From Minisyncoccota bacterium (GTDB lineage: Bacteria; Patescibacteriota; Minisyncoccia; Phycocordibacterales; UBA9973): DNA of 38,010 bases. This document shows, piece by piece, positions 16,205 to 17,342 of this stretch. The stretch's first letter is position 1. Every line of letters starts with the position of its first letter. The notes beneath the pieces were generated by a model. That model was given only the letters and a program-made list of their open reading frames with translations. It had not been told where the DNA came from and made no database searches. The translations under genes were made by a program, and so were the position numbers. Location of the stretch: the NCBI GenBank assembly GCA_028718635.1, contig JAQULK010000002.1:1-38010 (forward strand), in the 5' to 3' direction.

Positions 16205-16753
16205 TTATATAGGATTATTTAATTTCGAAGGCCCGTTTAATGTCTCAAGAATTTTAAGAAGGTGCAATAAAATTGTCTTGGGTGACGGTGGATCGCCTGG
16301 AATATGAAAATCCACAGGAATAATTGATTCGACGCTGTCTAAAACTGCATAAGATCCTTTGAATACGCCTCCGTCTTTTGCATCATCACCTACCGTGACT
16401 ACGATTTTTGGGGTAGGAGTTGCTTCATAAGCATCTTTGACTGCGCTCGCCATATTGCGAGTCACCGGACCGGTAACCAGCAACATATCAGCATGCCTCG
16501 GAGAAGCGACAAAATGAATCCCGAAACGCTCGATATCATAGTAGCTATTTGATAAAGCGACTAGTTCCTGCTCGCAAGCGTTGTCGGATCCGGCGTCTAC
16601 TTGCCGGATAGCAAGAGAACCATTAAACATGCGTTTCACGTTGTCATGTATCTTCTTTCCAATATAAGAAATCTCTTCTTGATCTACATCATTATGGGAT
16701 ATTGGAATCACTGTGTTTTTGTTTTTGAATATTTTTAACAGAAGTTTAAACAT
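16205..16753 (-). CDS. HycG/HyfI/NuoB-like small subunit with 3 of the 4 [4Fe-4S] cysteines replaced by Asp
   Basis: VASPRHADMLLVTGPVTRNM is the family core. The ligand sites read VDAGSDNACEQE (D57, C60), VGDDAKDGG (D124) and IPGDPPSP (D154), where the family has GSCxxCE, GxCAxxGG and PGCPP. Confidence 0.85.
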   Translation of the reverse strand: MFKLLLKIFKNKNTVIPISHNDVDQEEISYIGKKIHDNVKRMFNGSLAIRQVDAGSDNACEQELVALSNSYYDIERFGIHFVASPRHADMLLVTGPVTRNMASAVKDAYEATPTPKIVVTVGDDAKDGGVFKGSYAVLDSVESIIPVDFHIPGDPPSPKTILLHLLKILETLNGPSKLNNPI

Positions 16754-16925: not shown

Positions 16926-17342
16926 TTACTTCTTTGCGAGGCTATCAATAAAATTGTGGTATTTTTGATCTTCTTTACCAATATGATTTATCCACCACTC
17001 TCCAAGATATGTCTCTACTTCCATTATTAATGCATCTGCATTTTCTCCACTATTTAATTTATCTAAAAAAGCAACATAATTCTTGATAAAATCCTCATGT
17101 TTTTTTATATGTTCTTGCAAATAAGGATAACTATATTCCTGCATATAATATTCTTCATAAGAAAAATGTTCTTTAATGTATTCGTCAAAAAAACTAACCG
17201 CATCGGATGCCTCTTTGGATTTTGCCCCTATGGCTATCGCATCAATGATTTTGTTAAGTTGTGATAAAAGTTTTTGATGTTGTTCGTCAATATGACCCTC
17301 TCCAACTGACATACTTTTTGTCCATTCAAAATAAATTGCCAT
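16926..17342 (-). CDS. Bacteriohemerythrin-like protein
   Basis: FEWTKSMSVGEGHIDEQHQKLL..., HFSYEE, HIKKHEDF, WWINHIGKEDQKY: the His/Glu/Asp di-iron ligand pattern of hemerythrin. 138 aa. Confidence 0.85.
   Translation of the reverse strand: MAIYFEWTKSMSVGEGHIDEQHQKLLSQLNKIIDAIAIGAKSKEASDAVSFFDEYIKEHFSYEEYYMQEYSYPYLQEHIKKHEDFIKNYVAFLDKLNSGENADALIMEVETYLGEWWINHIGKEDQKYHNFIDSLAKK

Follow-up and report, generated by a model that had tools for sequence, protein, structure and literature searches.

What becomes of the proximal-cluster site of a NuoB/HycG-type small subunit when the cysteines that would hold its [4Fe-4S] cluster are replaced by aspartate? The question is raised by a 38,010-bp stretch of DNA (37% GC; hereafter the window), in which the first gene of a six-gene operon encodes a subunit with Asp at three of the four ligand positions. 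A sequence-only reading of the window had located this gene correctly, but its strand (minus) needed adding. The window also carries, on the plus strand (434–2137), a Cys-rich 567-aa ORF with many CxxC pairs that is unrelated to the operon.

Table. Coordinates, in the window, of the operon and of the residues of the small subunit discussed in the text.
Feature	Coordinates	Strand	Basis
NuoB/HycG-type small subunit, first gene of operon	16205..16753	minus (16753→16205)	ORF, 182 aa
D57, codon GAC, site of Cys1 (GS-C-NGC)	16583..16585	minus	alignment and codon check
C60, codon TGC, site of Cys2	16574..16576	minus	alignment and codon check
R86 of SPRHAD motif, conserved basic residue, former cluster pocket	16496..16498	minus	homolog conservation
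D124, codon GAT, site of Cys3 (G-x-C)	16382..16384	minus	alignment and codon check
D154, codon GAT, site of Cys4 (PG-C-PP)	16292..16294	minus	alignment and codon check
HyfB/NuoL-like antiporter-type subunit, 683 aa	14148..16199	minus	Pfam Proton_antipo_M 1.5e-59
HycD/NuoH-like subunit, 308 aa	13217..14143	minus	Pfam NADHdh 4.1e-45; HycD 7Z0S_D 3.9e-40
HyfE/NuoK-like membrane subunit, 215 aa	12567..13214	minus	weak Pfam Oxidored_q2 (NuoK/MrpC-like) match
HyfF/NuoM-like antiporter-type subunit, 478 aa	11126..12562	minus	Pfam; alignment to MbhH 6CFW_H
NuoC-NuoD fusion, HycE-like large subunit, 527 aa	9541..11124	minus	Pfam; HycE 7Z0S_E 7.3e-75

The small subunit matches the Pfam model PF01058 (Oxidored_q6) with 83.4 bits (gathering cut-off 27; E=1.5e-23). 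Compared to PDB sequences it is closest to MbhJ (6CFW_J, 1.2e-29) and HycG (7Z0S_G, 2.9e-28), and then to complex I PSST/NuoB; scores for the NCBIfam models of complex I NuoB are below the cut-off (114.5 vs 116 bits for NF005012 and 109.7 vs 142.7 bits for TIGR01957). An AlphaFold2 model of the subunit, built from 40 homologs, has a pLDDT of 90.9 overall and of 92–96 in the blocks that contain the three Asp sites. Foldseek matched this model, with a probability of 1.00, to approximately 50 NuoB/PSST/MbhJ/HycG chains, the TM-score reaching 0.84 for 6CFW_J.

HMMER alignments to MbhJ (6CFW_J), HycG (7Z0S_G) and complex I PSST place D57, C60, D124 and D154 opposite Cys1, Cys2, Cys3 and Cys4, respectively. 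The register is secure because relatives with all four cysteines (CCCC) read GSCNGC, GDCARDGG and PGCPP in the same columns. Alignments and codons together bear out the claim, made from the sequence alone, that three cluster cysteines have been replaced by Asp; given 14 Asp among the 182 residues, the probability that at least three of the four named sites would be Asp by chance is about 0.0017. The motif G-D-D-A-K-D-GG, to which attention had been drawn, is new only in part: D124 replaces a cysteine, but D123 and D127 are ancestral and occur in the cluster-containing CCCC relatives, which rules them out as a novelty (the position of D123 is Thr in an actinobacterial lineage described below). 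An error of register, or the supply of Cys ligands from elsewhere, had been named as findings that would overturn the reading, and alignment and cysteine counts revealed neither. C60 is the sole cysteine of the small subunit, so ligands cannot come from elsewhere within it; the large subunit contains two.

The small subunit heads a Hyf-like set of six adjacent minus-strand genes separated by gaps of 1–5 bp, a tightly packed order that is kept across phyla in related loci. The 683-aa subunit scores 657 bits with the NCBIfam model 'hydrogenase 4 subunit B', just below the cut-off of 667, and the match of the 215-aa subunit to 'hydrogenase 4 membrane subunit' (1.3e-11) is likewise below cut-off. 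The operon comprises these six genes and not the complex I set (NuoA, NuoI, NuoJ and the rest of nuo), and no NuoI/HycF-type ferredoxin gene was found either in the operon or in the 19 related loci inspected. Neither of the NiFe motifs RxCGxCxxxH and DPCxxCxxR was found in the partner large subunit: alignment to HycE, with codons checked, shows S228, S231, S521 and G524 in place of the four NiFe cysteines, the former motifs reading KISGDSSFSHS and NLSYSGNDL. All six subunits together have 8 cysteines in 2,393 residues. Since the NiFe cysteines are gone, a ferredoxin subunit is missing and cysteines are this scarce, a cubane is excluded; on the evidence of its sequence the small subunit carries no [4Fe-4S] cluster, and the complex is without any recognisable redox-cofactor site.

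The membrane arm retains hallmark charged residues. TM5 Glu, TM7 Lys and TM12 Lys, as found in active antiporter-like subunits, are retained in the 478-aa NuoM-like subunit, and the NuoH-like subunit retains most of the PFD…E loop, with changes. This acidic TM5–6 loop has a part in coupling in both complex I and FHL; in the window's NuoH/HycD-like subunit it is altered, residues ~190–215 reading PFDNPDTHLELTMIHE vs PFDLAEAEQEL-QE in HycD.

A hemerythrin-domain gene (16926–17342, minus; Pfam 6.4e-14) lies directly upstream of the operon and had suggested a link to iron or oxygen. A search of 86 related loci (L001–L086) did not find it in any of them; the link was therefore dropped, and the adjacency is probably incidental. 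A candidate promoter, TTGACT…TATAAT, in the AT-rich region upstream was also rejected: the region contains 34 promoter-like matches, compared to 29.5±5.8 after shuffling, and is not above expectation.

[quoted passage not shown] 2020, PMC7304191), and include a CPR-specific clade reported to lack the large-subunit cysteines (PMC7304191); their function is described as unknown (PMC4378227, PMC6349859, PMC7304191). On the basis of motifs, and of close homologs in Nomurabacteria, Magasanikbacteria and other CPR MAGs, we infer that the window's complex is a member of this group. It shares with Ehr the six genes (NuoB-, NuoL/HyfB-, NuoH/HycD-, HyfE-, NuoM/HyfF- and NuoCD/HycE-like) and a large subunit that is related to group 4 hydrogenases but devoid of NiFe cysteines. 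It differs in that its small subunit is also without cluster ligands and has a conserved set of carboxylates, whereas the small subunits of proteobacterial Ehr are still CCCC. The descriptions of Ehr that we found in the literature treat the large subunit only.

Conservation was determined for the 120 nearest protein clusters (67–89% identity) plus the window protein (n=121). D57 is Asp in all 121 sequences and D124 in 120 of 121; at D154, Asp alternates with Asn (77 D, 44 N). Cys is found at the position of C60 in 116 of the 121 near homologs, and over wider relatives the residue is C, A, V, P, T, I or E and is thus dispensable. Codons were counted in 70 unique non-CCCC coding sequences taken from genome loci, and Asp is encoded by GAT and GAC, respectively, 13 and 12 times at site 57 (where this site is Asp), 20 and 20 times at site 124, and 31 and 24 times at site 154. 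Gene-wide dN/dS compared to the nearest relatives is 0.05–0.13, with dS saturated; saturation of dS and a phylum-wide spread exclude the notion that the homologs are one recent clone. Conservation of the sites, turnover between GAT and GAC, the low dN/dS and similar patterns in separate lineages (below) vindicate the proposal that the replacements are non-random and not the product of simple decay. Acidic residues at the old ligand sites are kept by purifying selection.

The wider family allows the rules at the four sites to be described. Because mafft --auto placed many CCCC sequences out of register, this alignment was used only for the Cys-less set. Two or three D/E residues occupy the four sites in 197 of 199 unique Cys-less sequences, and none has four, compared to a background D+E content of 10%; three or more of the sites carry oxygen-donor residues in 196/199. 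Site 4 is D or N in 198/199. Site 1 is D, T, S or N among the wider Cys-less relatives, and Asp at this site appears specific to part of the family rather than universal. The residues at sites 2 and 3 go together: Glu at site 2 pairs with Gly at site 3, a Cys or small residue at site 2 pairs with Asp or Glu at site 3, and site 3 (D124) becomes Gly only where site 2 is Glu. This exchange of Glu60/Gly124 for Cys-or-small/Asp-or-Glu looks like a compensating swap. The vacated cluster pocket has been rebuilt and not abandoned, being furnished with two to three carboxylates plus polar oxygen side chains. Two pocket arginines, R86 (SPRHAD) of the small subunit and R186 (GHFRF) of the large subunit, are conserved among homologs in CCCC and Cys-less classes alike; that R86 would lie close to the cluster is suggested by the complex I literature.

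The nearest homologs are from Nomurabacteria, Staskawiczbacteria, Magasanikbacteria and other Patescibacteria, and the window's genome is of a Patescibacteria (Nomurabacteria-like) type. Eighty genome loci were fetched with the small subunit, and all 80 encode an Ehr-type large subunit in which R[IV]SGD[STEM]S…H and NLSY[ST]GND are conserved. In the numbering of the window's large subunit these segments span residues 226–236 and 519–527, and in full read R/K-[IV]-S-G-D-[STEM]-S-F-x-H-[SA] and N-L-S-Y-[ST]-G-N-D across the 80 loci; such conservation suggests that the former NiFe active site has likewise been turned into something specific. Ligand sites in the 80 loci are CCCC in proteobacterial Ehr, D-C-D-D in the window's CPR clade, T/S-C-D-D in Lentisphaerae, Dadabacteria, Saccharibacteria and others, S/T/N-E-G-D in Moranbacteria, Uhrbacteria, Kaiserbacteria and others, and D-[P/A/T]-D-N in methanogens and Dehalococcoidia. 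A high-GC actinobacterial group has D-[V/I]-D-D in 120/120 sequences, and a Chloroflexota group has [D/E]-x-[E/D]-[D/S] in 113/120. The sequence-only reading knew of no example with three Asp ligands, and there is none in the literature that was searched; in sequence databases, however, the arrangement is common and is found in hundreds of clusters.

The pattern of relatedness among these forms bears on how often the replacement occurred. In a neighbor-joining (NJ) tree from which the ligand columns were left out, Cys-less forms are scattered among CCCC ones. The tree was not bootstrapped and was backed by nearest-neighbor identities and flank motifs: no Cys-less lineage is closer to the other Cys-less lineages than it is to CCCC sequences, and the flank motif is CDWE in the Chloroflexota group and its CCCC kin vs CEQE/CELE in the window's clade. 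Taken together, these data support the view that carboxylates have replaced the cluster cysteines repeatedly and by convergence. One pair of sequences, P0158 (S-A-E-S) and P0164 (C-C-C-C), is 85% identical once the ligand columns are left out; the switch seems to be recent here, and the pair would lend itself to a study of how Cys gives way to carboxylate.

Several loci have features of their own. The actinobacterial lineage is Solirubrobacteraceae-like (L087:5513-7796; proteins P0198 and P0271-P0389), most of its D-[V/I]-D-D proteins keep at the N-terminus the degenerate remnant of a ferredoxin, with one CxxCxxC, and its partner large subunit is without NiFe ligands (RVSGTSSVAHA … LSPAGCDR). 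Cryobacterium sp. Y50, a cultured isolate and thus a possible experimental host, has the six-gene operon (L026:10001-17200) on a 173-kb scaffold, with D-T-D-D in the small subunit; the 8 kb that include most of the operon (L026:9001-17000) have a GC-content of 52% vs 59% over the 20.5-kb locus, which suggests horizontal acquisition. Another cultured carrier is Methanospirillum lacunae Ki8-1 (L070), with D-A-D-N in the small subunit. A Lentisphaerae MAG (L014:6400-18000) has two tandem Ehr-like gene sets and, after them, a third small-subunit gene, which is longer (254 aa) and encodes a ferredoxin-type Cys motif. The Ehr operon is immediately downstream of an F-type ATP synthase operon in L001 and L002:2534-9816 (Magasanikbacteria genome), and likewise in two other organisms (L058 and L060); in L001 and L002 genes for a CBS-domain protein and an ArsB/CitMHS-type transporter come after the Ehr operon. 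As evidence of a functional link to ATP synthase we discounted this adjacency, a weak hint that recurs in only 3 distinct organisms.

In four loci of Chloroflexota/Dehalococcoidia (L088:1-2677, L090:8248-10906, L091:8385-10867 and L092:8497-10858) the small subunit and a 2x[4Fe-4S] ferredoxin domain form one fusion protein. The fused subunits have ECED, DTED and DADD at the proximal-cluster sites, and the adjoining large subunits keep all four NiFe cysteines (ER[VIA]CGAC..SH and FELCY[AS]C[LT]DR). Among homologs of this group 113/120 are Cys-less at the proximal sites. These look like forms in which an intact NiFe site is found without a cysteinyl proximal cluster. If the enzymes are active then something must bridge the proximal position, and they would present a real puzzle for hydrogenase enzymology.

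What, then, do the carboxylates do? The [Fe4S4(Cys)4] unit has a net charge of -2 when oxidised and -3 when reduced, and the proximal cluster cross-links three loops at the interface between small and large subunits. The explanation that we favor, with a probability of roughly one half, is that the carboxylates replace the charge of the cluster and brace its pocket, possibly with the help of a hard cation, and that the complex is a redox-independent ion-translocating module. The carboxylates of D57, D124 and D154 would stand in for [Fe4S4(Cys)4] in the same place and with the same net charge of -2 to -3. Homology predicts that they would lie opposite R86 (small subunit) and R186 (large subunit); in this position they would hold the three ligand loops, and the interface of the two subunits, together, and a hard cation may sit between the carboxylates. 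Given that both arginines are kept in CCCC and Cys-less forms, two to three carboxylates would preserve both the charge balance and the cross-links. Retention of the NuoM-like TM5 Glu/TM7 Lys/TM12 Lys, and of most of the NuoH loop, leads us to infer that the whole complex most likely works as an ion-translocating machine that is independent of redox chemistry, in which case the peripheral module would have a structural or regulatory role. There are two difficulties for this account in its purest form. The three buried carboxylates of the DCDD form may need a counter-ion, a consideration that favors a cation site, and in the Chloroflexota lineage a role as purely structural filler is hard to square with the forms described above.

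The sequence-only reading had proposed a remodelled metal site. In the form considered here, the old cluster pocket would be a site for a hard cation (Mg2+, Ca2+, Mn2+, Fe2+ or Na+) held by D57, D124 and D154, with the ion having a structural, regulatory or sensing role. We regard this as possible, although on balance doubtful. Every tolerated residue (D, E, N, S or T) offers an oxygen donor, with at least three such residues in 196/199 sequences; two carboxylates would neutralise M2+; the E60/G124 swap resembles the relocation of a ligand; and convergence in at least three lineages is as expected of such a site. Yet a metal-free charge surrogate predicts the same pattern, the two conserved pocket arginines could already balance the charge, and site 1 varies widely (D/T/S/N) between sister clades. 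The exchanges at site 1 (D/T/S/N), at site 4 (D/N) and between sites 2 and 3 (E with G) would fit a cation site and a metal-free pocket of salt bridges equally, and a bound hard cation would be just as natural a means of keeping three carboxylates in one place. A bolder version, which we think unlikely but hold in reserve, is that the carboxylate set is a new metal centre in place of the proximal [4Fe-4S], serving as an electron relay in Chloroflexota and in cation-sensing or gating of ion translocation in the window's complex; it is because of the Chloroflexota forms that we do not dismiss a truly new metal centre, although its probability is small.

That ion-translocation residues are kept in a complex with no redox input, that new conserved polar motifs are found at the NiFe site too (SGD[ST]S, LSYSGND), and that the operon occasionally adjoins that of ATP synthase could all be understood if the acidic cluster belonged to a hydrophilic route for ions or protons (a cation funnel or a proton-loading site) that joins the E-channel of the membrane arm to the cytoplasm or to the cavity of the former active site. 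However, a titratable relay would poorly tolerate D/N and D/S/T exchanges, the adjacency is confined to 3 organisms, and in structures of complex I and MBH the homologous cluster sits high above the membrane and away from the path that protons are known to take; we consider the idea distinctly unlikely. More improbable again is that electrons still pass through a redox-active metal centre whose ligands are the carboxylates and not cysteines. The Chloroflexota proteins, with ECED/DTED/DADD alongside a 2x[4Fe-4S] domain and four NiFe cysteines, need something at the proximal position, but the window's complex has neither NiFe cysteines nor a ferredoxin subunit and therefore nothing to relay between, its site 2 Cys is dispensable, and an Fe-S cluster with a single Cys ligand, or with none, is not known. 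Least credible of all is neutral decay, with the small subunit a relic and its Asp residues accidental. A cluster would have no conceivable redox role in a cofactor-less complex, which speaks for decay; but invariant or near-invariant sites over 120 homologs, synonymous turnover, a dN/dS of 0.05–0.13 and the recurrence of acidic replacements in independent lineages all oppose it, as does the contrast with the NiFe positions of the large subunit, which became Ser/Gly.

Comparisons to characterised systems show how far the window protein departs from them. MbhJ of the Pyrococcus furiosus membrane-bound hydrogenase and HycG of the E. coli formate hydrogenlyase have the same fold and the same GS-x-N, SPRHAD and PG-x-PP motifs, but theirs is a proximal [4Fe-4S] held by four Cys that passes electrons to NiFe, where the window protein has D, C, D and D; the four cysteines that define the small subunit of group 4 [NiFe]-hydrogenases (HycG/MbhJ/EchC) are accordingly not found in it. 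Complex I NuoB/PSST/Nqo6, the site of cluster N2, shares fold, family and pocket arginines, but the window's complex is without the N2 cluster, NuoI and the N-module. Proteins in which a [4Fe-4S] has a single Asp ligand exist (P. furiosus ferredoxin, the DPOR NB-cluster) and likewise place a carboxylate at the position of a normal cluster cysteine; they keep three Cys, however, whereas the window protein has at most one, and that one dispensable. Mrp-type cation/proton antiporters resemble the complex in having antiporter-like subunits with a conserved Glu/Lys set and no redox cofactor, but are without a peripheral module of the NuoB/NuoCD/NuoH type.

What appears to be new here is the small-subunit carboxylate site, the Ehr complexes themselves being already known. 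No description of the site was found in the full-text literature searched, a scope outside which the founding Ehr paper lies (Marreiros 2013). One practical consequence concerns annotation: the names 'NADH-quinone oxidoreductase subunit B' and 'Ni,Fe-hydrogenase III small subunit', routinely given to these proteins, imply a cluster that they are unable to bind. The usual view of complex I, the membrane-bound hydrogenases and related complexes is that chemistry beside the terminal Fe-S cluster drives them. A widespread and strongly conserved version with neither NiFe site nor cluster, but with a carboxylate pocket that is under selection and arose by convergence, is a natural experiment on what the peripheral module does beyond electron transfer, and would be of still greater interest if the carboxylates do bind a functional metal. 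It also poses the question of what role Ehr complexes have in CPR bacteria, which are without respiratory chains.
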